DNA of 14,028 nt from Candidatus Altiarchaeota archaeon (GTDB lineage: Archaea; Altiarchaeota; Altiarchaeia; IMC4; QMZM01). The stretch is taken from positions 1-14,028 of the forward strand of contig JAWAEV010000013.1 in NCBI GenBank assembly GCA_038891095.1. The letters are read 5' to 3'. The position numbers and the translations under genes were made by a program. The notes under the pieces were generated by a model. That model was not told where the DNA came from. It saw only the letters and a list, made by a program, of their open reading frames with translations, and ran no database searches. How positions within the stretch are numbered: position 1 is the first letter of the stretch; every line of letters begins with the position of its first letter. This document shows positions 2,958 through 14,028 of the stretch, in pieces.

Positions 2958-4310
2958 ATGTCAATTTTCAGAGCATATGACATAAGAGGAATTTTCGGCA
3001 AAGATCTGACTTTGGAAATAGCTGAAAATATCGGAAAAGCTTTTGGAGTATATATTGGCAACAAAGGAGAAGTTGTTGTAGGAAGAGATTGTAGATTAAG
3101 TTCTCCTGAGCTAAGAGAGGCTATTGTTAATGGTTTGACCTCTTCTGGGTGTGATGTTCTTGACATTGGTATGGTGCCAACACCAGTTTTTTACTTTACT
3201 GTTCGTCATTACAAAAAATGTGCTGGAGTTATGATAACTGGCTCGCATAATCCTCCAGAATATAATGGCTTCAAACTTTGTAAAGGAGAGCATACTTTAT
3301 ATGGCGAAGAAATTCAAGAATTGAAGAAGATAATAAAAAGAAAAAAATTTAAAAAAGGAAATGTTAATGGATATGTAAAAGAGCAGGATGTTACTCAAAG
3401 CTATATAAATTTTTTGAAGAAGAAAATAAAGATAAAAAGAAAATTAAAAGCAGTTGTAGACCCTGGAAATGGAACCTCAGGGCCAATTGTTAGGAGGTTA
3501 TTCAAAGAGTTAGGTTGCGATATAATTGAATTGAACTTTGAGCCAGATGGCAGATTTTTAGCACATTTTCCTGACCCAACAGTTGACAAAAATTTAGAGC
3601 AGTTAATTAAAGCAGTAAGAGATGAAAATGCAGATTTAGGTATAGCATATGATGGCGATGCTGATCGTTTGGGCTTAGTAGATGATTTAGGTAATATTGT
3701 GCGAGGAGATCAAGCACTAATTTTGTTCTCAAGAGAAATTTTAAAGAAAAACAAAAGAGCTAAAATAATTTTTGAAGTAAAATGCTCTCAAGCATTAATT
3801 GAGGAAATTGAAAAGAATGGTGGCATTGGGATTATGTATCGCACAGGGCATTCTTTCATAAAGAAAAAAATGAAAGAGGAAAATGCTTTGCTTGCTGGAG
3901 AGATGTCAGGACATTTTTTCTTTAGAGATAATTATTATGGCTACGATGATGGAATTTTTGCATCTGCAAGGATGTTAGAATTACTTTCAAAAACTGAAAA
4001 GAAGTTCTCAGATTTAGTCAGAGAAATTCCAAAATATTTTTCAACTCCTGAGATAAGGATTCACTGCCCTGATAATGAGAAATTTAGAGTTGTTGAAGAG
4101 CTAACAAAAAATTTTCAACAGAAGGGTTATGATGTCATTACAGTTGATGGTGCAAGAATCCAATTTAAAGATGGTTGGGGTTTAGTTAGAGCATCAAATA
4201 CCGAGCCTGCCCTGATCTTAAGATTTGAAGCAAAAACAGAAGAAAATTTAGGAAGAATAGAAAATTTAATTAAAGAGGAATTAAGAAAGTTTCTATCATT
4301 ACAGCTTTGA
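2958..4310 (+). CDS. manB: Phosphomannomutase/phosphoglucomutase (AlgC/ManB-type alpha-D-phosphohexomutase)
   Basis: N-terminal IFRAYDIRG, catalytic TGSHNPPEYNGFK, metal loop DGDADR, sugar loop GEMSGH, C-terminal RASNTEP. Confidence 0.95.
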   Translation: MSIFRAYDIRGIFGKDLTLEIAENIGKAFGVYIGNKGEVVVGRDCRLSSPELREAIVNGLTSSGCDVLDIGMVPTPVFYFTVRHYKKCAGVMITGSHNPPEYNGFKLCKGEHTLYGEEIQELKKIIKRKKFKKGNVNGYVKEQDVTQSYINFLKKKIKIKRKLKAVVDPGNGTSGPIVRRLFKELGCDIIELNFEPDGRFLAHFPDPTVDKNLEQLIKAVRDENADLGIAYDGDADRLGLVDDLGNIVRGDQALILFSREILKKNKRAKIIFEVKCSQALIEEIEKNGGIGIMYRTGHSFIKKKMKEENALLAGEMSGHFFFRDNYYGYDDGIFASARMLELLSKTEKKFSDLVREIPKYFSTPEIRIHCPDNEKFRVVEELTKNFQQKGYDVITVDGARIQFKDGWGLVRASNTEPALILRFEAKTEENLGRIENLIKEELRKFLSLQL

Positions 4311-4370: not shown

Positions 4371-5027
4371 TTATAGTATATCAAAGCTAAAGTCATGAAG
4401 ATTTATAATTGGTTTATCAAAATAATCTTCAGAAATTCTTGGACATGCTGTATTTAGCCACAAATCAACTTTAAATCCTAGTAATTTTTCTGGAGAAATT
4501 TCATCTCCAACAAATATAAATGCTTTTCTACCCTTTTTCTCAATTTGTTTTTTTATTTCAATAGCTTTTTTAAAGTTAAACTGATTTGTCTTTGTTGAAA
4601 CAAGAATTCCAAAAACTTTTGCAGAAAGTGCCTTTAAAATTGCTGCTTTTTTTCTTGCAATATACTTTTTTCTTTCATCATCTGAAATTTCATCTATGGA
4701 GTTAGTGTATGGATTAAAAATAATAACTGGTTTTTCAGTTCTTGCTGAGATTCCTAAAGCATGAAATTTTCCAGAGCCTATATAGATGAAGACATCGACT
4801 TTGTTTTTAACTTTTTCAATTTTTCCAAAACTACAACCCAAAATTTGTCCAAAAGCCACTACTTTTTTTCCTTTGCTCTGAAGAAATTTCTTTACTTTAC
4901 TTAGCTGTGCTAAATGTTGTGTAGTTGTAAATAGAGCAACTCTCTCATATTTTTCAATTTTTTTCAGAATTTTCTCATTAAGAAAAATTTTCTTTTTTGA
5001 ATAACAAGGGATAAAAAGAATTTTCAT
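4371..5027 (-). CDS. dph2: Diphthamide biosynthesis protein Dph2 (short form)
   Basis: Motifs FTTTQH, GQILGC, YIGSGKFH, GILVSTK..Q, NTACPRI..D..F.KPII. At 218 aa it is shorter than canonical archaeal Dph2. Confidence 0.88.
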   Translation of the reverse strand: MKILFIPCYSKKKIFLNEKILKKIEKYERVALFTTTQHLAQLSKVKKFLQSKGKKVVAFGQILGCSFGKIEKVKNKVDVFIYIGSGKFHALGISARTEKPVIIFNPYTNSIDEISDDERKKYIARKKAAILKALSAKVFGILVSTKTNQFNFKKAIEIKKQIEKKGRKAFIFVGDEISPEKLLGFKVDLWLNTACPRISEDYFDKPIINLHDFSFDIL

Positions 5028-5031
5028 GACA

Positions 5032-7899
5032 CTAAGTTTTTTTCTTTAACTCAACTTCCTTAAGCACATTTTTTATATCATGCGCAACATCTTCTTGCTC
5101 AGACCACTGAAGCTTTGCTATTGGCAATTTATCCAGTTTTGTTTCAATTATATAATGTAAAATTCTTTTTTCTTTCATACCAAGAGTGCCAAGATACCAC
5201 TTGGCGACTTTATCTTTCAATTTTTCATCAAAACCATCATGTGTTATAACATCAAGATTAGTTGCATCATCTGGCAATGGATCAATAACATAAACATCCT
5301 TTATTGGGGTTCTCTGGTTATTTTTTACTGTTAGATAGACAAAAACCTTTTTATTCTTTCTGGAAACTACTTTTTTTATTTCTGGCCCTCTACTTGGGGA
5401 TTCTTCACTTGTTATTTCCTTTAAACCTATAGAAGAGATATCAACCTTTTCTGAAATTTTTTTGCCCTCAATTTTTTCTCTCAATTTATCTTCAACTTTA
5501 GTGCTAAAAATAGGTGATATAGTATCAACATTAGCTACTAATTTTTTTTCATCTGTGACATTAGGGATTTCCTTTACAATCGTGACTTTTGGTTTCTCAC
5601 TTATAGTGCTTTCTTTTTTAATTTCAATCTTAGCTTCATCCTTAAATTTACTCTCATATTCCGAATTTATTCTTGGTTCAAGTGACTCAAGATAAAGTTT
5701 TGCAACATCAAAGCTGCCTTTTTTAACATTATCAAATGCTAAATTTAGCTCCAATTCTAAATCAAACACATCAACACCCACTTCTTTAAGTTTTTCTATT
5801 TTATCCTTGAGTTCTTCTATTTTTATGTTAAATTTATCATATCTCTCAAGCTCTTTATCACTAATTCTCTGAACACTATGTAGAATAGGTCTAAATGAGA
5901 TGAAATATGGTCTGCCTTTATTATACTCAGCATTTTGCAGCATTCCAGTACCAACTGCAGCCTTTACAACAGACCTTAAAATGTCTTCACCATACTTCAT
6001 TTTAATTCTTTCTAAGTCACCTTCATACCTTGCCCTCATCTGAATTTCTGTTCCAATGTTTGCTTTTATTTCTCCTACAAAATCTGAAAGAACTTGTGAT
6101 ATGAGGATAACTCCTAAGCCCCACTTCCTAAACTCTCTGACAGCATGCTCTACTTGAGTTAGACCATTGCCTGAGCCACCAAATTTAGGTAGCAATCTAT
6201 GAACTTCATCTATTATTATTAATGTTTTCAACTCATAAGTTTCTTCAAAACCACCAAGGAATACATCTCTAATAGCATTACTTATAAATGTCTCTATCTC
6301 AGGCGTCTCCAATTTATTCAGGCAGAAAACAGTAATCTCTCCTGGCTTTTGATATTTTTTAATGTCAATTTTTTTATTTGGATCTTTTACTATGTAAATA
6401 TTCCCATTAAATGCCCTAGCATCTTTTTCTTTCATTCCAAATTTTCCATACAAGGCAAACATTCCTTTGTCTTTATTTTTTCTAAGAAATCCTGTCCACT
6501 GAGCTGTTGGATCAAAAACTATAGCTGAGACATTTCTTTGTAAAGCTTCTTCAACAAGAACTTGTGCAGCAATTGTTTTTCCAGAACCAGTTGCTCCTGC
6601 TATTAGAACATGGGTTGTTAGCTTATCTATATCAAAAAATGCTCTCATAGCTGTTTCAGCTAATCTTCCAAGGAATCCTGCTCTTGGACCTGGCTGCGGT
6701 AAGGTACGCATTTCAATTGTTTCAAGATATCTGCGTTTTCTTGCTTCTTCTCTTTTGTGTAGGATATAGACTATAAAGAGAATGAAAATTAGTACTAAAG
6801 AACTTAATATCATCCATATAGGAATTCCAAAAATTGCAAATTCAAATAAAGAACGCTTTACTGTTATGGAACATGTTGCTAGCTCTCTTACCTTCACACC
6901 CTCTCTTGAGAATTCAGCTATTCCTCTGATTATATATCTGCCTTCAGGGATATCTTTTGATAAATTTATTTCTGTAATTACAGAAGTTGATGTTTCAACA
7001 CTCGCCTTTTGTGTTTGCTCTATAATTATATTATTACTTATTGGCTCAATAAGTTGGATTATCAAATCTAAATCTATTTTCCCAGAACCGCCGAGATTAT
7101 AGAGAGTTGTATCTACTCTTAAAGTCTGTCCTGGAGAAATCATCTCTGTGACAGGACTAACTTTTATATCTAAAATTTTCTCTCTTGATTGCAGAACTCT
7201 TATAGTTACTGGAACTACAGGTAAACTAATATTTCCAGAATTTATGATAATGTTTCCATAATATAATCCAGGTGGAGTCCCTGGAGGGATATATACACTT
7301 AAATTTATATGTCCTTCTGCTCCAGAAGGCAATGTTAATGTTGGGTTTTCTATATTTATTAGATCTGCAACAGTTCCATCAACTTTTGATGAAATAATTT
7401 TAGTTGAATTCAGATTATTTTTCACTAAAATCATAGTTGGAAGGTAATCACCAGGATCTAAATCGAAACTTATTGCCTGCGAGAGAACTTGTAAAGTTCC
7501 GCCTTTAGATTCTGATATTAAATTGTTTAGATTATTATGAATTTCATTAACTGTATTTCTCATTTGTTGGATTTCAGTATCAGTCGCTTCTCTGATTTTA
7601 GCAAGATTATCTTGAATTTCTTCTATTGATTTCCAAATTGATGTTGTGTCTATAGTAGCATTTGTTGTTTTATTTAGAGAAGAAAGCATTTCCTTGATTG
7701 TAGAAATCTCTCTTTCAATTCCAGAGATGTCTACTCTTCCACCACCAGCATATGGCGGGATAGTTATAGTTGTTGCAGTAGGTTGAAGATAATAATTATC
7801 ACCATAGTCAATCTCGTAATATGTACCATTCTGAACATAAGCAAAAACAAACACAGACATCAAAAGAATTGCTAATACTGTTTTATATACAATTTTCAT
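5032..7899 (-). CDS. Membrane-anchored HerA/FtsK-superfamily (DUF87-like) P-loop ATPase with extracellular coiled-coil and Ig-like domains
   Basis: Signal peptide (MKIVYKTVLAILLMSVFVFA), heptad-like region, beta-rich Ig-like segments, TM helix (IPIWMILSSLVLIFILFIVYIL) followed by a basic stretch. ATPase motifs: HVLIAGATGSGKT (Walker A 6574-6597), IVFDPTAQW, LIIIDEVH (Walker B 6199-6219), REFRKWGLGVILISQ. Confidence 0.88.
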   Translation of the reverse strand: MKIVYKTVLAILLMSVFVFAYVQNGTYYEIDYGDNYYLQPTATTITIPPYAGGGRVDISGIEREISTIKEMLSSLNKTTNATIDTTSIWKSIEEIQDNLAKIREATDTEIQQMRNTVNEIHNNLNNLISESKGGTLQVLSQAISFDLDPGDYLPTMILVKNNLNSTKIISSKVDGTVADLINIENPTLTLPSGAEGHINLSVYIPPGTPPGLYYGNIIINSGNISLPVVPVTIRVLQSREKILDIKVSPVTEMISPGQTLRVDTTLYNLGGSGKIDLDLIIQLIEPISNNIIIEQTQKASVETSTSVITEINLSKDIPEGRYIIRGIAEFSREGVKVRELATCSITVKRSLFEFAIFGIPIWMILSSLVLIFILFIVYILHKREEARKRRYLETIEMRTLPQPGPRAGFLGRLAETAMRAFFDIDKLTTHVLIAGATGSGKTIAAQVLVEEALQRNVSAIVFDPTAQWTGFLRKNKDKGMFALYGKFGMKEKDARAFNGNIYIVKDPNKKIDIKKYQKPGEITVFCLNKLETPEIETFISNAIRDVFLGGFEETYELKTLIIIDEVHRLLPKFGGSGNGLTQVEHAVREFRKWGLGVILISQVLSDFVGEIKANIGTEIQMRARYEGDLERIKMKYGEDILRSVVKAAVGTGMLQNAEYNKGRPYFISFRPILHSVQRISDKELERYDKFNIKIEELKDKIEKLKEVGVDVFDLELELNLAFDNVKKGSFDVAKLYLESLEPRINSEYESKFKDEAKIEIKKESTISEKPKVTIVKEIPNVTDEKKLVANVDTISPIFSTKVEDKLREKIEGKKISEKVDISSIGLKEITSEESPSRGPEIKKVVSRKNKKVFVYLTVKNNQRTPIKDVYVIDPLPDDATNLDVITHDGFDEKLKDKVAKWYLGTLGMKEKRILHYIIETKLDKLPIAKLQWSEQEDVAHDIKNVLKEVELKKKT

Positions 7900-7920
7900 T
7901 CTGTCTTATCTAAATTTATT

Positions 7921-7954
7921 AAATATTTTGTATATGAGCATATAAACCTTTCGC
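7921..7954 (-). promoter_or_regulatory. BRE-TATA promoter of the ATPase gene
   Basis: Minus strand reads GCGAAAGG TTTATATG CTCATATA CAAAATATTT, with the TATA box about 40 nt upstream of the ATG at 7899. Confidence 0.75.
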
Positions 7955-7983
7955 TCTCTGATTTCCAGTTTAAAAAATCCGTC

Positions 7984-8003
7984 AAAAAAGAAAAAAAGAA
8001 AAA
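7984..8003 (-). terminator. Oligo(T) archaeal terminator-like tract
   Basis: TTTTTCTTTTTTTCTTTTTT on the minus strand, just after the stop codon of the 722-aa gene. Confidence 0.55.
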
Positions 8004-8008
8004 TTAGA

Positions 8009-10177
8009 TTATGCAGTGAATATCGTTGTCTCTGTAGTGCACTTGTATTTTTGCTCATCAAATACTGGACCTTCACAGAGTGTTATTGAAAGTTCATAGT
8101 CTCTACCTTTAATAAGGTTTAATTGTTTCTCTTCTCCAATTCTTAGTTCATAAATTCCATTACTAATGACATCATTGAAAATTTGTGCCCAAGAAGCTAA
8201 TGGTGTATAAGTATCGGTTATAACAACTTTCAAGCTTCCATGTAATAAATTCCTTTCACCTTTTAATGTTAAAATTGTTGGTGTTGGTAACTTTTGTGCA
8301 TAGCCTTCATCAATTTTCTCATTGTCTACATATATATTATCTTTATCTGCTGTAACGCTACCAACACCTGTTCCTTGTAGCTCATCATAAGTATCTTCAA
8401 TAACCTCTATTGAGCCTATAGGCCCACGAGCATGAGTTACCCATACATACTCTGGATCAATTTCAACTTCTCTAACAACAGTATAATTGCCTATACTAAG
8501 TGATGGTCTAAGAGAGATATTTAGGGTGTAATTAAATGTTGGTCTCACGATATATTGAGCAACTAAGGGATTACAATAAGGCTCAACATTCTTGAATTCT
8601 CTATTCTGGTTAACACAAGTTTGATTTATATAAGGATCAGTTGCACTCCATCTGAGGAACCAGAATTTCCATCTTATTGGCAAGTAGTCAGTTGAATCGA
8701 ATCCTTGCTTCAATGGAACTGTAATGTTGTAGAATATGGTTATGTTTGCTACTCCACTCAAAAATCTTCCAGTCATGTTTTCAAAGCGTATCACTTGGTC
8801 ATTTCTTCTTACAAATCTTTCCCATATCCAGTGTGTTGTTGTATTTATCTCTGTGACAAAAATTTTGACTGTGTTTAAAGTTGAATTAACAACAAGGACA
8901 TGATATGTTATGTTATCTAACTTCTCACATAATGCATCTTGTACATAATTTGCAGTACAATTTGTCATATTTCTAATTTCTCCAGCTTTTAAATTTATTT
9001 CTTCTAAAGTAACATTCATTCCAAGTAATCTTGCATGTAGGCTATTGTTTGTATTTGTTATTAACTCTACAATAGTATCATTGTGTGAAAACAGCTCATT
9101 TTCCATTCTTGTTATGTTCTCTCTTAAGAATTGTGTCCAGTTCATTATATACTTTAGTCTCTGGCAAATTGAGTAATTTTCTTGATTAACTATTGCATAG
9201 TCAGAACAATTTAATGTATTATAAATCCAGTCAGTATCATTTAAAATTTTTGAAATGTTTTCATTCATTCCTTGTAAATATGGATAAACAGTTCCTGTGA
9301 GATAGTCATAAATGTTTGTTGTATTGTATTGAGTTGCTCTTAAAAATCTTAAAGCTGCTGATGAGGTATAAATTATTGCATAATCTAAAGCAAATGCATT
9401 GTCATAGACTTCTAAAACAAATGTGTTTTGTCCTGTTTGTAGTATACTCACATTCACTATCTCAGTTTTCATAGCTTCAGAACTTCTGTCAAAATTCCAG
9501 TTTTTGAATACATAGTAACCATTTATTGAAAGATTTACCCTAGTTGTTGCTGAAGTTCCATAAGGTGCTGTGATCAATTCGACTGTTAAGTTATCTAAAG
9601 GTATTTGCTCAAGATAGAAATAATATGTTCTTGAAGTTCCTGTTGAGAGAACCTCATAAATTTTATCATGAGATGTCAAATTCTGATCAACAGTTGTAAG
9701 ATCATTGGAAACAACATACAAATTCTTACCAAAACTTGTAAGAATATTACCGGTTAATTTCTTTGTTAAAGTTGCTGTTAAATTTGTTGAATAAGTAGTT
9801 GCATTTATCTCTCTCAAGAATTCTAAGGAGCTAATATTTAACTTCTGCAATGTTGTGTTTATTAAATCTAAATACCAGCATTTTGTTCCAACCTCTGCAA
9901 TATGGTTATCCTTAGTACAGTTCTCTCTATCAAATAGATATGAAACATTCCAAAGAGTTCTCCATGTTGTGTAATTTATCTCTGCTAAGTAATCATACAC
10001 ATCAGGAACATAAACATCTTCTGTTACAGTGACATTTCTTAACTCTCCTGATGAAGAGCCAACAATATTCTCAGAAAATACAAAATTAGATGCAAACAAA
10101 GCTAAGAACACTAAAGCTAAAAAACTAACCATAAGAGCCCCGCTAAATACCCTGCCAATTTTATTTATTTGTTCCAT
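8009..10177 (-). CDS. Secreted coiled-coil glycoprotein with probable beta-sandwich (CBM-like) insert and conserved C-terminal domain; function unknown
   Basis: N-terminal hydrophobic signal, many N-x-S/T sequons, amphipathic helices broken by Cys pairs (NCSDYAIVNQENYSIC, NCTANYVQDALC). The C-terminal ~90 aa are homologous to those of the 824-aa protein, and 8393-8503 is homologous to the ORF at the right edge. Confidence 0.85.
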   Translation of the reverse strand: MEQINKIGRVFSGALMVSFLALVFLALFASNFVFSENIVGSSSGELRNVTVTEDVYVPDVYDYLAEINYTTWRTLWNVSYLFDRENCTKDNHIAEVGTKCWYLDLINTTLQKLNISSLEFLREINATTYSTNLTATLTKKLTGNILTSFGKNLYVVSNDLTTVDQNLTSHDKIYEVLSTGTSRTYYFYLEQIPLDNLTVELITAPYGTSATTRVNLSINGYYVFKNWNFDRSSEAMKTEIVNVSILQTGQNTFVLEVYDNAFALDYAIIYTSSAALRFLRATQYNTTNIYDYLTGTVYPYLQGMNENISKILNDTDWIYNTLNCSDYAIVNQENYSICQRLKYIMNWTQFLRENITRMENELFSHNDTIVELITNTNNSLHARLLGMNVTLEEINLKAGEIRNMTNCTANYVQDALCEKLDNITYHVLVVNSTLNTVKIFVTEINTTTHWIWERFVRRNDQVIRFENMTGRFLSGVANITIFYNITVPLKQGFDSTDYLPIRWKFWFLRWSATDPYINQTCVNQNREFKNVEPYCNPLVAQYIVRPTFNYTLNISLRPSLSIGNYTVVREVEIDPEYVWVTHARGPIGSIEVIEDTYDELQGTGVGSVTADKDNIYVDNEKIDEGYAQKLPTPTILTLKGERNLLHGSLKVVITDTYTPLASWAQIFNDVISNGIYELRIGEEKQLNLIKGRDYELSITLCEGPVFDEQKYKCTTETTIFTA

Positions 10178-10229
10178 TTTAATTTTATTTTTACTTTTTG
10201 AATTTTTTATTTTGAACTTTCTTAGGGGT

Positions 10230-10265
10230 TTAAAAATTTTGCATTTGAGTATAAATACTTTTCGG
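10230..10265 (-). promoter_or_regulatory. BRE-TATA promoter of the 722-aa gene
   Basis: Minus strand reads CCGAAAAG TATTTATA CTCAAATG CAAAATTTTTAA. Confidence 0.7.
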
Positions 10266-10269
10266 TTTT

Positions 10270-10536
10270 TTAAACTTTTATCTCTTTGACACGGAAGTAT
10301 TTTACAACTGTTTTTGTTGTTGGATCTATTAGCAGCATTATTCCTTCTTTTTCTGAGTTATATTCAACTTTGTAGATTTCTTTTGAGTTTATATTAGAGT
10401 AGATTGCTGGTGAAGTTGCAATCAATGAGCGAAGAGCAGTTTCATCTAAGAAGGTTACTTTTGATTTATAAAGAGGATTTTCTCTCATGAACTCTTTTGT
10501 TAAGGGATGCTGCGAGGCTATCTTTAAAATTTCCAC
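10270..10536 (-). CDS. Small PepSY-like domain protein; paralog of 10606-11037 lacking the membrane anchor (possibly a 5'-truncated remnant)
   Basis: 46/88 identities without gaps (hand count) to the C-terminal domain of the upstream 143-aa protein. The start is GTG. Similarity continues a few codons upstream (KFTD versus KLTD) towards an in-frame TGA at 10564-10566. Confidence 0.6.
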   Translation of the reverse strand: MEILKIASQHPLTKEFMRENPLYKSKVTFLDETALRSLIATSPAIYSNINSKEIYKVEYNSEKEGIMLLIDPTTKTVVKYFRVKEIKV

Positions 10537-10605
10537 ATCTGTAAATTTTAATTTTGTGTTAGCTCAGAGCTCAGCTAAAGTTTGTGGAATGCACAACTTG
10601 AAAAT

Positions 10606-11037
10606 TTAGAAGGAAATTTCCTTAACTCTGTAGTATTTTAAAATTTTTTGTGTTTCAGGGTCAAGTAGAAGAAGTATGCCTTCATCCCTTGCTTTATATT
10701 CCACCTTATAAAGCGCTCTAACATTTAGGCCCCCATAAATTGCTGGCGCTGTTGCTGCTAAAGATTTTAGCATTGTCGCATCAACAAAGGTTATCTTTGT
10801 TTCATATTTTGGATTTCTTGCAACAAAGTCTTTTGTTATTGGCTCTCTGCTTGTAATAGATAAAATTTGTGCATCTGTAAGTTTTTTCGCCTCAATAGGC
10901 TTCTCTTTTTCTTTGGAGAGCATTGGTAAAACAAAAATTACAAATAAAATTACTGCTATAACTAAAGCAACTGCAAAAATAATTTTTGGTTCGACTGGGA
11001 ATTTAAATTCCTTCTTTTCAGATTTCTGAAGTGTCAT
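10606..11037 (-). CDS. Single-pass membrane protein with C-terminal PepSY-like domain
   Basis: TM helix IIFAVALVIAVILFVIFVLPML. YKVEY...ILLLLDPETQKILKYY resembles a PepSY-type strand pattern. It starts 13 nt after the stop of the 824-aa gene. Confidence 0.8.
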   Translation of the reverse strand: MTLQKSEKKEFKFPVEPKIIFAVALVIAVILFVIFVLPMLSKEKEKPIEAKKLTDAQILSITSREPITKDFVARNPKYETKITFVDATMLKSLAATAPAIYGGLNVRALYKVEYKARDEGILLLLDPETQKILKYYRVKEISF

Positions 11038-11050
11038 TTTATGCTACATT

Positions 11051-13525
11051 TTATGCTATAAAATATGTTGTGAAAGTCTCGCAAGTGTAGAGTGTTGGAT
11101 CAAATGTTATTCCATCACAAACCGTTATATCCCTTTTATATTTTCTTTTTGGAATTAAACTTAAATCATGAGTACCGCCAATCATTATGTTGAACATATT
11201 ATCATGTATGATATCGTTATATTCATGACTCCAAATAACAAATGGCACATAAGCATCTGTTATATTTACCTGAATACTTCCGACTGAAAGATAGTCATTT
11301 GTGCCCTTTCTTTTAACTTTACCTTGTAAAATTAAAACTGTTGGTATTGGTTGTGTGTATGAGAAATTTCCCCATTTAACCTCATTTATATAATTTACCA
11401 TATTTAAAGTTTCATGGATTGTTCTATTTACTTCTGCTAATAAATCAGCTAAAGAGCCACCTCCAGTGGTTGCGTTTTGTATTAATTCTAAACGATAGCA
11501 AACATCTGAAGGATTAACTGATGTGCAATTAAATTCAATAATTAAACTTTCTACATAATCATGGATTGTTGTTATGTTTGAAAGCAATATATTAACTTTT
11601 GAAGCAATATAAGTTGCATTGTTCAATGTGTCAATTGTTGTTATGTTAATTATTTCAATTAGAGTATTTATATCGCTAATTTTTTTGCATATATCATTCT
11701 CAGAGTTATCACAATCTAATGCTTCAAAAATTGCAGTTGTGTTAGCATTAATTGCATTTATAGTTGTTTCAATATCAAGCAATTTATCCCATATAGTTTT
11801 ATTATGGTCAGTTAAAATTTCTCTTAATAACGAGAGATTACTTTCTATTCTTTCAGCGTAATTGCAAAGGTCAGAGTTGTTGCCAAGATTAGAGCAGTTT
11901 AACATATCTTGAATTTTATTTACTGAGGATTGCAAGTTAGAGATGTATTCACAAATAGGTGAGTCATCAATCCCATCACAATCTAACATCTTTGAAATTG
12001 CGGATGTATCTAAGGTTATAGTGACATTTAAATCAAAGCCAACTTTGAAGCCAGATGTTGCTTGAGTTTTCTTTCCAAGAGGATCAGCCTCAATTAGGAC
12101 AGCATAACTACCATGAAATGCATTTGATGGTATAGTCCAGCTATAGTAATACCACCCAGTTGAAATTTTATTCATTGCAATTGAGTTTAAATCATAAATT
12201 ATTGAAGAACCATTCCAATGAATTACTGTTAAATTTATATATGTATCTGGCTCAATAGGCTCCCCATGGAAAGTTATTAATGCGTATGCTGTTATAGTGT
12301 TGCCTTCCCCATAAATTGTGTCAAGCCCAGCAATACTTATCATAGATGAGGTTCTGTTAATATAGCTAAGTGTAGTGTCAATTCTATGAGTTGTTGTATT
12401 AATCTCATTTAATATTCCGAGCAAAGGACCTGTCGCATTTTGTATTAACTCTAAACGATAGCAAACATCTGAAGGATTAACTGATGTGCAATTAAATTCT
12501 TTTATGAGAATTTCCAAATAGTTTTTCACATCACTAACATTTGAAAGAAGTTCTCTAAGCTGAGGAAGCATTAATGTGACATTATCTAATGTTTTATGTG
12601 TTGTTGAATTCACTTCTTCAAGGAAAATTCTCAACTCATTAACTTTCTTGCAGACATCATTTTCAGAGTTATCACAATCAAGAGCTTCTGATATATTTTC
12701 AACATATGATCTTATTGTATTTGATGTTGATTCTATCAACAATAATTTATTCCACATTGAATAATTCACATCTCTAAGCAAGTTTCTAAGGTCAGAAATA
12801 TTTGTTTCTAAATTTTTTGTGTAGTTACAAATATCTGAATTGTTGCCATTATTTTCACAATTTAGCATATCAAGGATAATTGAAGTTATATTATTCATGT
12901 TTTTCGTATATTCACAAATAGGTGAGTCATCAATCCCATCGCAGTCCATTTGTTCTGTTATTAAGGAAGTGTCAACACTAATTGTCGCATTTATTGTAAA
13001 TCCAACTTTGAAGCCAGATGTTGCTTGAGTTTTCTTTCCAAGAGGATCAGCCTCAATTAAAATGCTATAAGTGCCCTGATGCTTTATGCCAGAAGGAATT
13101 GTCCAATTTAGATAATACCACCCAACAAAAATTTTCGTCATTTGAGTTGAATTTAAGTAAAATTGTAAAGATGAACCATTCCAATGAACTATTGTAATGT
13201 TGCAATATGACTCAGGATCAACTGGGGCTCCATGTAAAGTTATTGATGCAAAAATTGCTATATTGTCACCTTCACCATAGATAGTGTTAACTCCGCCAAT
13301 TGTTATTATTGGCAAAGATCTATTGCTCTGATTTTTTATTTCTTGGATATCAAGCCATTGGGAATATTCATCAGGTCTTGAAATATTTTCAGTCGCTGAA
13401 AATGTTGAGCAATTTGGACCCACACAATTATCAGGAGAAGTTACACTAATAAGTAAAAAGACAGCTACAAGTGAGGAGTATAATAGCAAAAATTCTCTAA
13501 AAAAATTTCGCTTATTTTTTTCCAT
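11051..13525 (-). CDS. Secreted glycoprotein with two ~321-aa repeats (Ig-like domain plus Cys-punctuated coiled coil) and conserved C-terminal domain; function unknown
   Basis: Signal-like N-terminus, duplicated TIYGEG...EADPLGKKTQATSGFKVGF...DCDGIDDSPICEY...NCTSVNPSDVCYRLELIQNAT, and about 38 N-x-S/T sequons by hand count. Confidence 0.88.
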   Translation of the reverse strand: MEKNKRNFFREFLLLYSSLVAVFLLISVTSPDNCVGPNCSTFSATENISRPDEYSQWLDIQEIKNQSNRSLPIITIGGVNTIYGEGDNIAIFASITLHGAPVDPESYCNITIVHWNGSSLQFYLNSTQMTKIFVGWYYLNWTIPSGIKHQGTYSILIEADPLGKKTQATSGFKVGFTINATISVDTSLITEQMDCDGIDDSPICEYTKNMNNITSIILDMLNCENNGNNSDICNYTKNLETNISDLRNLLRDVNYSMWNKLLLIESTSNTIRSYVENISEALDCDNSENDVCKKVNELRIFLEEVNSTTHKTLDNVTLMLPQLRELLSNVSDVKNYLEILIKEFNCTSVNPSDVCYRLELIQNATGPLLGILNEINTTTHRIDTTLSYINRTSSMISIAGLDTIYGEGNTITAYALITFHGEPIEPDTYINLTVIHWNGSSIIYDLNSIAMNKISTGWYYYSWTIPSNAFHGSYAVLIEADPLGKKTQATSGFKVGFDLNVTITLDTSAISKMLDCDGIDDSPICEYISNLQSSVNKIQDMLNCSNLGNNSDLCNYAERIESNLSLLREILTDHNKTIWDKLLDIETTINAINANTTAIFEALDCDNSENDICKKISDINTLIEIINITTIDTLNNATYIASKVNILLSNITTIHDYVESLIIEFNCTSVNPSDVCYRLELIQNATTGGGSLADLLAEVNRTIHETLNMVNYINEVKWGNFSYTQPIPTVLILQGKVKRKGTNDYLSVGSIQVNITDAYVPFVIWSHEYNDIIHDNMFNIMIGGTHDLSLIPKRKYKRDITVCDGITFDPTLYTCETFTTYFIA
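11380..13309 (-). repeat. Intragenic tandem duplication, period 963-966 bp
   Basis: Identical blocks at a 963-bp offset: 12039-12096 = 13002-13059 (58 bp), 11487-11536 = 12450-12499 (50 bp), 11946-11977 = 12909-12940 (32 bp), 11700-11716 = 12663-12679 (17 bp). Outer boundaries are approximate. Confidence 0.92.
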
Positions 13526-13530
13526 TGTTA

Positions 13531-13566
13531 ATTAAAATTTATCATTTGAGTTTTTATACTTTCCTT
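13531..13566 (-). promoter_or_regulatory. BRE-TATA promoter of the 824-aa gene (probably leaderless transcript)
   Basis: Minus strand reads AAGGAAAG TATAAAAA CTCAAATG ATAAATTTTAAT, with the TATA box ending 25 nt upstream of the ATG at 13525. Confidence 0.7.
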
Positions 13567-13571
13567 TTTCA

Positions 13572-14027
13572 TTACTTGTTATACCATTTATCTTTCATTT
13601 GCTCTCCGCCTTTAGATTTTTTCTTTTCAATTAGGATAAATAAAATTAATAAAGCAGTTATCGCAACTGGTAAAACAGTATAAAGGTCCAAATTTAATTT
13701 CCAGCTTTCTCTTTCTTTTGCTGACTTAGCTAATGCTGCTATGACCTTTGCTCTTTTTTCAGTTGTTGTTGTAATTTGTTGAGTTGTTGTTATAGGTAAT
13801 AAAATTTGTATTACATATGGCTCTTTCTTCTCTTCTGTAGGTATAGCCATTGTTAATGCTTCTTTCTCTTGCTCAAGAAGCTCTGGCATAGTAACATTGA
13901 TCAATGGCTCAAAATTATCTTCGAGAACAGTTATATTTCCGATAGGACCGTGAGCATAGCTAAGCCATACTTGTTCTGGATCAACTTCAAGCTCTCTGAT
14001 CATAGTATAGTTACCTCTTTTTAGAGA
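13572..14027 (-). CDS. C-terminal part of a membrane-anchored surface protein related to the 722-aa protein (5' end outside the window)
   Basis: The frame is open to the window edge (SLKRGNYT-MIRELEVDPEQVW...), so ATG 14003 is internal. 23/37 identities to SLSIGNYTVVREVEIDPEYVWVTHARGPIGSIEVIED of the 722-aa protein. Thr-rich linker, TM helix VLPVAITALLILFILI and basic tail EKKKSK. Confidence 0.85.
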   Translation of the reverse strand, partial: SLKRGNYTMIRELEVDPEQVWLSYAHGPIGNITVLEDNFEPLINVTMPELLEQEKEALTMAIPTEEKKEPYVIQILLPITTTQQITTTTEKRAKVIAALAKSAKERESWKLNLDLYTVLPVAITALLILFILIEKKKSKGGEQMKDKWYNK

Positions 14028-14028
14028 A

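Follow-up and report, generated by a model that had tools for sequence, protein, structure and literature searches.

The closest described relatives of the system analyzed here are the SPEARE proteins of DPANN archaea, which, according to Hamm et al. 2019 (PMC6642349), consist of a giant extracytoplasmic adhesion region and a transmembrane (TM) segment near the C-terminus. The same paper reports SPEARE-like sequences in Woese-, Aenigm- and Micrarchaeota and in Altiarchaeales, mentions short versions of 655 and 717 aa, and assigns the portions outside and inside the cell to gel fractions of different size. In a later re-annotation, Reva et al. 2023 (PMC10266531) interpreted the cytoplasmic portion as a TM segment, a VirB4/TraG-like ATPase and a coiled coil, and proposed a secretion mechanism similar to that of type IV secretion systems (T4SS); small SPEARE-like genes are also mentioned in print for another nanohaloarchaeal order. 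SPEARE-type giants are among the most conspicuous DPANN genes and are thought to mediate host contact. Their large size hampers study, and their mechanism is disputed, with adhesion or pore formation plus DNA degradation on one side and T4SS-like secretion on the other. Here we describe a cluster of six genes with a short membrane ATPase of this type at positions 5,032 to 14,028 of a 14,028-nucleotide (nt) stretch from a Candidatus Altiarchaeota archaeon (GCA_038891095.1, JAWAEV010000013.1). This stretch, called the window below, is one whole contig (C13) of the source genome (G000; 15 contigs, 958,546 bp, 93.65% complete). Labels such as C7, C10 and C13 denote source-genome contigs, G001 and G003 the genomes of relatives, and L040 and similar the loci that were fetched.

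We propose, with a probability of about 0.6, that the cluster represents the DPANN surface machine of the SPEARE type in a split and short form, and we are still more confident in calling it a split functional unit of the SPEARE type. In most DPANN, the conserved ATPase part forms the end of a giant, heavily N-glycosylated protein of the adhesin type. The Altiarchaeota family studied here has a short ATPase, and the genes directly upstream of it code for large glycoproteins that possess domains A and B (described below) and a C-terminal anchor of their own. Either through fusion or within an operon, the ATPase is genetically coupled to large ectodomains that are glycosylated and of the adhesin type. 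The presence of the family, including in Altiarchaeales, is already in print, and what is new here is the conserved operonic split with anchored partner proteins. A literature search found no description of this split, of the coiled-coil partner family or of the variants with KaiC, NurA and DUF835, all of which supplements may list as genes.

The ATPase is 47% identical to RLG14629.1 over 616 of its 955 residues, a region that spans the ecto-module, the TM helix, the ATPase and the coiled coil. As RLG14629.1 is listed as a SPEARE match (Hamm et al. 2019, PMC6642349), the ATPase is a short-form member of a described family, and the initial annotation, which took the apparatus to be undescribed, has to be corrected in this respect. 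The homology to the conserved cytoplasmic region of SPEARE was established via RLG14629.1. The protein and its parts, some of them located in an AlphaFold2 (AF2) model, are the following:

5032..7899, minus strand: short-form SPEARE-type membrane ATPase, 955 aa (Pfam, PDB profile, AF2, Foldseek; RLG14629.1 match)
6859..7494, minus strand: membrane-proximal ecto-module, two beta-sandwiches, residues 136-347 (AF2; found in 80 of 80 related loci)
6718..6819, minus strand: TM helix, residues 361-394 (AF2 model; hydropathy)
5890..6681, minus strand: HerA-clade P-loop ATPase core, residues 407-670 (Pfam, 25-sequence alignment, PDB profile)
5101..5424, minus strand: cytoplasmic C-terminal beta-sandwich, residues 826-933 (AF2; weak DUF11 match)

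In the AF2 model, which has a predicted local distance difference test (pLDDT) score of 73.8, an N-terminal helix (2-24) and a coiled coil (59-126) precede the two beta-sandwiches and the TM helix. Past the membrane, the RecA-like core is followed by helices (681-764), a disordered linker and the terminal beta-sandwich. The protein would be single-pass if the N-terminal helix is cleaved and two-pass if it is retained, giving one or two TM helices per subunit. N-glycosylation sequons occur at 2.13 per 100 aa in residues 22-350 and at 0.35 per 100 aa in residues 385-955. The domain order of the model and this split of the sequons place the N-terminal bulk outside and the ATPase inside, with the coiled coil after it, as in SPEARE.

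The order of an Ig-like ecto-module, a single TM helix, an ATPase matching ResIII and DUF87, and a coiled coil is common to the window protein and the described SPEAREs (PMC6642349, PMC10266531), and so are adhesin-type glycosylated ectodomain partners with Laminin_G and Big domains. The window protein has 955 aa as opposed to 3,000-9,400 aa, and a very long ectodomain with laminin-G in the same polypeptide is missing, its own ectodomain being about 330 aa long and free of Laminin_G. The large ectodomain is instead supplied by separate anchored and secreted genes with the lineage-specific domains A, B and C, the window cluster has no protease or toxin-like region, and the host is an altiarchaeon rather than an obligate nanohaloarchaeal symbiont.

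The profile searches relate the motor to the HerA clade. The Pfam match to DUF87/HerA central (PF01935) scores 45.8 bits against a cut-off of 23.2, although it covers only profile positions 3-68 of 220. Further partial Pfam matches around Walker A are to TrwB, HerA_C, ResIII (E 3e-6) and DEAD; TrwB_AAD_bind (29.2 bits) spans only positions 13-56 of 387, and FtsK_SpoIIIE (PF01580), at 22.1 bits, is under its cut-off of 24. The best NCBIfam match, CedD, reaches 38.8 bits against a cut-off of 600 and is confined to the Walker region, HerA (NF040937) scores 21 bits against a cut-off of 800, and TraD and TraC are far under theirs. A PDB profile search started from the 25-sequence alignment returned only HerA-type chains, the best being 4d2i (E 1.3e-7). 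In a Foldseek search of the model, tandem FnIII/Ig matches dominated, with the tandem FnIII domains of RbmA as the best match of the ecto-module, and the best ATPase-fold match was again HerA (4d2i_B, E 3.3e-8). The HAS-barrel N-domain is absent from the model, in which the TM helix runs straight into the RecA-like core, and no Pfam match to the CagE/VirB4 N-terminal domain was found in the protein. Walker A (GATGSGKT, 434-442), Walker B (D564/E565) and several arginines are invariant in the alignment, and judging from these residues the motor looks catalytically intact.

Copies of the C-terminal beta-sandwich, separate or fused, were found in relatives. In L040/L061 (G038:C32:638-2674), an ATPase orthologue is broken by one TAA codon just before Walker A into open reading frames (ORFs) of 532 and 443 aa, and the 1,391-aa cytoplasmic protein that follows it has two copies of this beta-sandwich.

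The ATPase family comprises at least 575 loci among GTDB species representatives, the best 80 of which were mapped for ORFs and neighbours. The maps were made with a simple ORF caller, many contigs are short, and the relatives are non-independent samples. In 42 of the 80 loci, the ATPase forms the C-terminus of an ORF of at least 1,700 aa that has 54-234 sequons and one TM helix just ahead of the ATPase; 35 of these 42 ORFs run off the fetched flank. Another 18 ORFs measure 1,200-1,699 aa, and the remaining 20 are shorter, 10 of them being cut by the locus end. Matches near the query length number 184 and are named as Altiarchaeota, Woese-, Micr-, Aenigm- and Nanoarchaeota. A further 312 proteins are longer (1,673-4,775 aa), and for the 120 listed the identity of the core is 47-65%; the domains of these long proteins include NEW3, Laminin_G_3, CARDB, Big, beta-helix, MG2 and, in some cases, DUF835. 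In a midpoint-rooted FastTree phylogeny of the ATPase cores, all short and middle Altiarchaeal forms appear as one clade, and the giants fall into other DPANN clades.

The other five genes of the cluster encode the candidate partners of the ATPase. They are listed here in the order of transcription, which ends with the ATPase gene:

13572..14028, minus strand: anchored domain-B protein, 3' part (ORF open at the window end, 13572-14027; 5' part lost at the contig end)
11051..13525, minus strand: F824, secreted N-glycosylation-rich protein, 824 aa (38 sequons; repeat halves; domain C)
10606..11037, minus strand: S143, small protein with an N-terminal TM anchor (54% identical to S88)
10270..10536, minus strand: S88, soluble paralog of S143
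8009..10177, minus strand: F722, secreted sequon-rich protein, 722 aa (34 sequons; AF2 secondary structure)

All six genes thus lie on the minus strand, and the architectures given in the initial annotation were confirmed, namely two sequon-rich secreted proteins that share a C-terminal domain, a C-terminally anchored relative, and two paralogous small proteins of which one, S143, is held in the membrane. The gaps between the genes are 13-109 nt long.

Linkage of the surface-protein genes to the ATPase was analyzed within Altiarchaeota, where 19 of 40 relatives have an ATPase orthologue with E < 1e-100 and 20 ATPase neighbourhoods were fetched. A gene for a partner with domain A or B lies directly upstream in seven of the 20. 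The order in G001:C80 (anchored B protein, F824-like, F722-like, S143-like, ATPase) reproduces the full set of the window in synteny, with the S143 orthologue directly upstream of the ATPase. In L043-L048, the gene directly upstream of an ATPase of 660-683 aa codes for a large protein that is rich in sequons, contains domains A and B and has a TM helix at its C-terminus, and in L043-L047 the stop of the partner gene overlaps the start of the ATPase. The other 13 neighbourhoods have no A, B or C gene and comprise five long-form ATPases (1,324-1,639 aa), the type with KaiC and NurA, a tandem pair, an interrupted gene and contig ends. Domain B is restricted to one family within the order, where it was found in 8 of 21 genomes as opposed to 0 of 27 in other families, and 9 of the 11 domain-B genes of the relatives lie in ATPase clusters, which represent five genera. 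ATPase homologues therefore do keep these surface-protein genes alongside, contrary to the outcome that would have refuted the initial annotation.

Three of the cluster genes are also preceded by similar promoter-like elements:

13532..13564, minus strand: upstream of F824, an A/T-rich TATA-like box followed by CTCAAATG..AAAT.TT.A
10231..10263, minus strand: upstream of F722, similar to the F824 element
7920..7952, minus strand: upstream of the ATPase gene, similar to the F824 element

The consensus of the 33-nt element is an A/T-rich box followed by CTCAWATR.WAAAT.TTWA, and the window sites are three of the seven genome-wide matches with at most one mismatch. The element was not seen upstream of the C10 and C7 paralogs described below or of the G001 orthologues. 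A scan for sigma-70 promoters and terminators, whose models are not relevant to archaea, gave counts at or below shuffle expectation.

The relationship between split and fused ectodomains was assessed by comparing nine partner proteins with 60 ATPase-bearing ORFs longer than 1,200 aa using phmmer. Five of the nine significantly match giant ectodomains, and all five are of the L043-L048 type; the L043 partner alone matches 34 of the 60 giants. Where a locus extends the full 8 kb upstream, the region of similarity stops immediately ahead of the conserved ecto-module. Partners of this type carry Laminin_G_3, Big_13, MG2 or DUF2341 domains, as the giants do. These findings are in agreement with a conserved working unit that consists of a 600-residue cassette (ecto-module, TM helix, HerA-clade ATPase and coiled coil), for which the adhesive ectodomain can come in trans from separately encoded anchored or secreted glycoproteins.

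How such a unit would work can be outlined as follows. The adhesive ectodomain would be made up of one or more anchored domain-B proteins together with the secreted F722 and F824, all placed on or next to an ATPase ring, presumably a hexamer, and at the site of contact the cytoplasmic motor would drive a polymer through the membrane. The substrate that we favour, by analogy and tentatively, is DNA imported as a source of nucleotides or for recombination, because the nearest solved relatives are HerA translocases, because the TM-anchored HerA-clade ATPases CedB and CedD import DNA, and because NurA adjoins the ATPase in paralogous Altiarchaeal clusters. CedD, in particular, is described as a TM segment plus a HerA-like ATPase that is required for DNA import (PMC11868833).

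Both DNA systems nevertheless differ from the window cluster. CedB and CedD, as portrayed in that source, share with the window ATPase the membrane anchor, the HerA-clade motor and a place at cell-cell contacts, the latter being a proposal in our case. However, apart from the CedD score far below its cut-off, the window ATPase has no VirB4-like N-terminal domain, a large exported domain precedes its TM helix, and there is no gene for a polytopic CedA or CedE channel near it. The HerA-NurA end-resection complex provides the nearest solved sequence and fold (4d2i), and a NurA gene stands beside paralogous ATPases, whereas the window ATPase is membrane-embedded, has an ectodomain, lacks the HAS barrel and, according to the Pfam scan, has no NurA in the window. 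The Pfam and NCBIfam scans of the ten window proteins also yielded no pilin, PilB/C, VirB or viral family. The cluster is neither a type IV pilus (T4P), nor an archaellum, nor a Ced system, as the initial annotation had suggested.

In a wider reading, the SPEARE-type ATPase would join with the coiled-coil protein of the following gene to form the core of a contact-dependent translocon found throughout DPANN, distinct from T4P, T4SS and Ced, that would take up DNA or nucleotide polymers from whatever the ectodomain binds. We regard this as rather unlikely in its full extent. If it were true, the Altiarchaeal versions, with the ectodomain split off and NurA, KaiC and DUF835 added, would expose the working parts of the translocon, and the 955-aa protein with its partners would be a minimal, structurally tractable model of machines of up to 9,400 aa. 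Irrespective of this reading, the Altiarchaeal paralogs with NurA, KaiC and DUF835 genes offer testable hints on substrate and regulation, and the 955-aa protein, whose partners are small, lends itself realistically to expression, to assays of ATPase activity and DNA translocation, and to cryo-electron microscopy.

A number of observations weigh against the proposed unit or against its proposed function. F722, F824 and their G001 orthologues match none of the 60 giant ectodomains, so that their tie to the giants is indirect, via the domains A and B that they have in common with other partners. No fusion of domain B to the ATPase was found, the candidate protein P0333 having been checked and rejected. 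Two of the 11 domain-B genes of the relatives (G001:C9 and G003:C83) and the C10 paralog in the source genome are located away from the ATPase. The inference of DNA is narrow, since NurA (1 of 80 loci), KaiC (6 of 80) and ParA (2 of 80) are rare neighbours outside Altiarchaeota. With one or two TM helices per subunit and no polytopic partner that is conserved, a DNA channel would have a thin basis. Going by their ordinary N-terminal signal-like segments, the surface proteins would need no dedicated exporter. No RNA run is listed among the four sequencing runs, all from one study, that contain the stretch, and the contigs from them were all DNA. A complex prediction for ATPase residues 136-350 with domain B of F722 (416-614) gave a score of 0.00, which speaks neither for nor against binding.

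The alternative that survives best is a protein-directed machine, in which the ATPase would assemble, anchor, tension, extract or turn over the glycoproteins, or would signal the engagement of the ectodomain, and no nucleic acid would be moved. Across the family, no partners recur other than the ectodomain and a coiled-coil protein of the cytoplasm (53 of 80 loci), nucleases are rare neighbours (1 of 80), and KaiC-like ATPases adjoin the ATPase in several Altiarchaeal subfamilies, all of which would suit such a machine. KaiC-like ATPases are regulators of archaeal surface motors. The separate gel size fractions of the two SPEARE portions reported by Hamm et al. 2019 (PMC6642349) would also fit. 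As the nearest relatives of known structure, both by sequence and by fold, are HerA-type DNA translocases, and the surface proteins carry ordinary signal-like N-termini, we consider this explanation improbable.

T4SS-like effector secretion, in which the ectodomain binds another cell and a VirB4/TraG-like ATPase drives effector export, was proposed for the nanohaloarchaeal giants by Reva et al. 2023 (PMC10266531). The partial TrwB_AAD_bind match and the topology of an N-terminal TM helix with a cytoplasmic ATPase, which resembles that of coupling proteins, agree with it. In more general terms, VirD4/TrwB, FtsK/SpoIIIE and EssC/EccC of type VII secretion systems are all membrane-anchored ring ATPases of the FtsK-HerA type that move DNA or proteins, and some of them give partial Pfam matches in the Walker region. 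However, the match to FtsK_SpoIIIE is below its cut-off, that to TrwB is short, and partner genes of these systems are missing. The CagE/VirB4 N-terminal domain is absent, no VirB6-, VirB2- or relaxase-like gene occurs in the window or among the annotated neighbours, the PDB profile search gave HerA-type chains only, and the sampled nanohaloarchaeal loci have a coiled-coil gene downstream of the ATPase rather than a second ATPase. Effector secretion is hence distinctly unlikely.

The surface-protein genes could also be ordinary S-layer or adhesin genes that happen to neighbour a membrane ATPase with a separate role. The domain-B genes away from the ATPase (C10, G001:C9 and G003:C83), the promoters that the genes have of their own and the intergenic gaps would allow this. 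Archaeal C-anchored S-layer and surface glycoproteins likewise have a signal-like N-terminus, dense sequons and, in the case of the anchored relatives, a Thr-rich linker and a C-terminal TM helix, but the cluster proteins have no S-layer match in Pfam or NCBIfam and their genes are tightly linked to the ATPase. The linkage of 9 of 11 domain-B genes across five genera, the overlapping stop and start codons in six loci, L043-L047 among them, the homologous modules that are fused to the ATPase in other phyla and the promoter-like element common to F824, F722 and the ATPase gene already make chance neighbourhood very improbable. An integrated virus or plasmid remnant, whose FtsK/HerA-type ATPase would package or transfer DNA, can practically be dismissed even though HerA-like ATPases are described as common in archaeal mobile elements (Makarova 2014), as the window proteins give no capsid, integrase, replication or tRNA-flank signal, the G+C content is flat at about 0.31 across the window, and the family is chromosomal, with its many loci spread over DPANN species representatives. 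Two other comparisons were dropped: the paper on the hamus, a grappling-hook structure, reports neither gene context nor an ATPase, and the secretion system predicted by Makarova 2015 is MoxR/vWA-based and hence different.

Returning to the split SPEARE-type unit, its surface proteins can be described in more depth. With 38 and 34 NxS/T sequons, respectively, F824 (4.61 per 100 aa) and F722 (4.71 per 100 aa) are both near the 99th percentile of the genome, the median of which is 0.45 per 100 aa (760 ORFs of at least 150 aa). The C-terminal domain C that they have in common shows 40% identity between the two over 103 aa (E 4e-24). None of the five non-ATPase proteins of the cluster belongs to a Pfam or NCBIfam family above threshold.

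F722 consists of an N-terminal region, long helices with Cys loops (about 274-453), domain B (416-614) and domain C (626-722). Its AF2 model has a low pLDDT of 54.4, and the Foldseek matches are generic tandem beta-sandwiches or STAT-like; a structure search of the Atlas with residues 416-722 gave no usable feature match. Of the coiled-coil fibre proteins seen in the initial annotation, the predicted long helices can thus be retained, whereas the low confidence of the model leaves the coiled coil itself uncertain. An exhaustive hidden Markov model search found parts of F722 in 234 library proteins, as against 10 in a narrower word-index search. In these 234 proteins, domain B is mostly located 150-250 residues before the C-terminus of chains of 800-2,500 aa, which suggests that it is a membrane-proximal module. 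A metagenome scan with the F722 alignment produced one short locus (L055, 3,974 bp), and two contigs (42.8 and 10.9 kb) hold both an F722-like gene and an ATPase homologue.

F824 is a tandem duplication of a 321-aa unit followed by domain C. Each unit contains an Ig-like domain A and a helical stretch in which four Cys-x8-10-Cys loops occur; an alignment of the two halves shows 57% identity over 316 aa (E 6e-131), and their cysteines are shifted by 321 positions. A single DNA contig of run X2 (depth 10.4) links position 11945 to 12909, skipping 963 nt or exactly one 321-aa unit, and the run gives no cover over 12232-12831 inside F824. There seems to be a sister population with a one-unit F824, and the number of repeats is hence polymorphic.

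In the anchored fragment, the last part of domain B is followed by a Thr-rich linker and a TM helix at the C-terminus, and the fragment is 57% identical to domain B of F722 over 42 aa. It is also 56% identical over 105 aa to the product of a paralogous gene on another contig (C10:9875-10978), a 367-aa protein with a signal, an Ig-like domain A, domain B, a Thr linker and a C-terminal TM helix. The last 125 nt at the right end of the window are 100% identical to C10:10600-10724 inside this gene, and it is this common repeat that broke the contig.

The small proteins S88 and S143 had been called PepSY-like. Neither has a Pfam match to PepSY (PF03413), and their structural similarity to PepSY clusters (TM-score 0.40-0.45) is below the bar, so that the resemblance stands as a weak structural lead and not as an assignment. 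Around the S88 gene (10218-10561), contigs of three runs go back by 344 nt from 10561 to 10218, and the depth exceeds that of the flanks by a factor of 1.4-2.4; a tandem duplication of the S88 unit may have been collapsed in the assembly.

The coiled-coil protein, a nearly universal partner of the ATPase cassette, belongs to a DPANN-wide family of about 335 aa, with members of about 300-700 aa, that has the conserved motif ERF..SEQIGELR...VQPE. It is encoded right after the ATPase in 53 of the 80 mapped loci (within L062-L135), and 51 of the 53 genes are at most three genes away on the same strand (E 1e-18 to 1e-37). It belongs to no Pfam family, and its similarity to PDB entries is of the generic coiled-coil kind only. 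The reading of this downstream protein of about 335 aa as a diverged NurA was rejected, as it gave coiled-coil matches only. Rarer neighbours in the 80 loci are KaiC-like proteins (6), a small protein with two TM helices (5), a DUF835 membrane protein (3), V4R (2), ParA-like proteins (2) and NurA (1), and these are essentially Altiarchaeal.

NurA is encoded directly downstream of the ATPase in L049 (G009:C4) and L051 (G014:C2), as identified by Pfam, and in L053 (G007:C49), where the protein is 45-71% identical to the other two, the 71% being to that of L051. The gene order in all three is DUF835 membrane protein, KaiC-like protein, ATPase (1,085-1,151 aa) and NurA, and this subfamily amounts to a membrane-tethered HerA-NurA pair. 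L052 (G018:C98) was placed with them by the sizes of its upstream genes, its ATPase gene running off the locus.

The source genome has a second SPEARE-type ATPase (C7:19624-22557, 977 aa), which is 48% identical to the window protein. Its neighbourhood (G000:C7:17975-27223) encodes a 283-aa TM protein, a KaiC-like ATPase, the ATPase itself and a 498-aa coiled-coil protein; 3 kb past this set lie a protein with two TM helices and the family-wide coiled-coil partner (C7:25581-26624), whose sole copy in the source genome is thus outside the window. The left end of the window and the start of C7 overlap by 118 identical bases, which puts this paralog about 25 kb beyond the cluster.

The remainder of the window is occupied by four further genes. 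Another secreted protein of more than 671 aa is encoded at 1-2013 on the minus strand, running on into C7:2-118; its features are two knot-like modules rich in Cys, poly-Thr linkers and 14 sequons. Between this gene and the cluster lie divergent sugar-nucleotide genes that encode an NTP transferase (2093-2920) and a PGM/PMM (2958-4310). A Dph2-like gene (4371-5027, minus strand) starts 4 nt past the stop of the ATPase; its product has only 218 aa and covers positions 64-287 of 302 of the Pfam Diphthamide_syn profile. This gene is not a conserved neighbour of the ATPase, and its place is taken by KaiC in G001.

Elsewhere in the source genome (G000:C6:16909-21857), a TM-anchored S143 paralog of 143 aa leads another run of secreted-protein genes, in which it is followed by sequon-rich secreted proteins (585 aa, and 883 aa with 48 sequons) as well as by pilin-like proteins. 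In this genome, operons for surface proteins may generally be accompanied by a small PepSY-like anchor.

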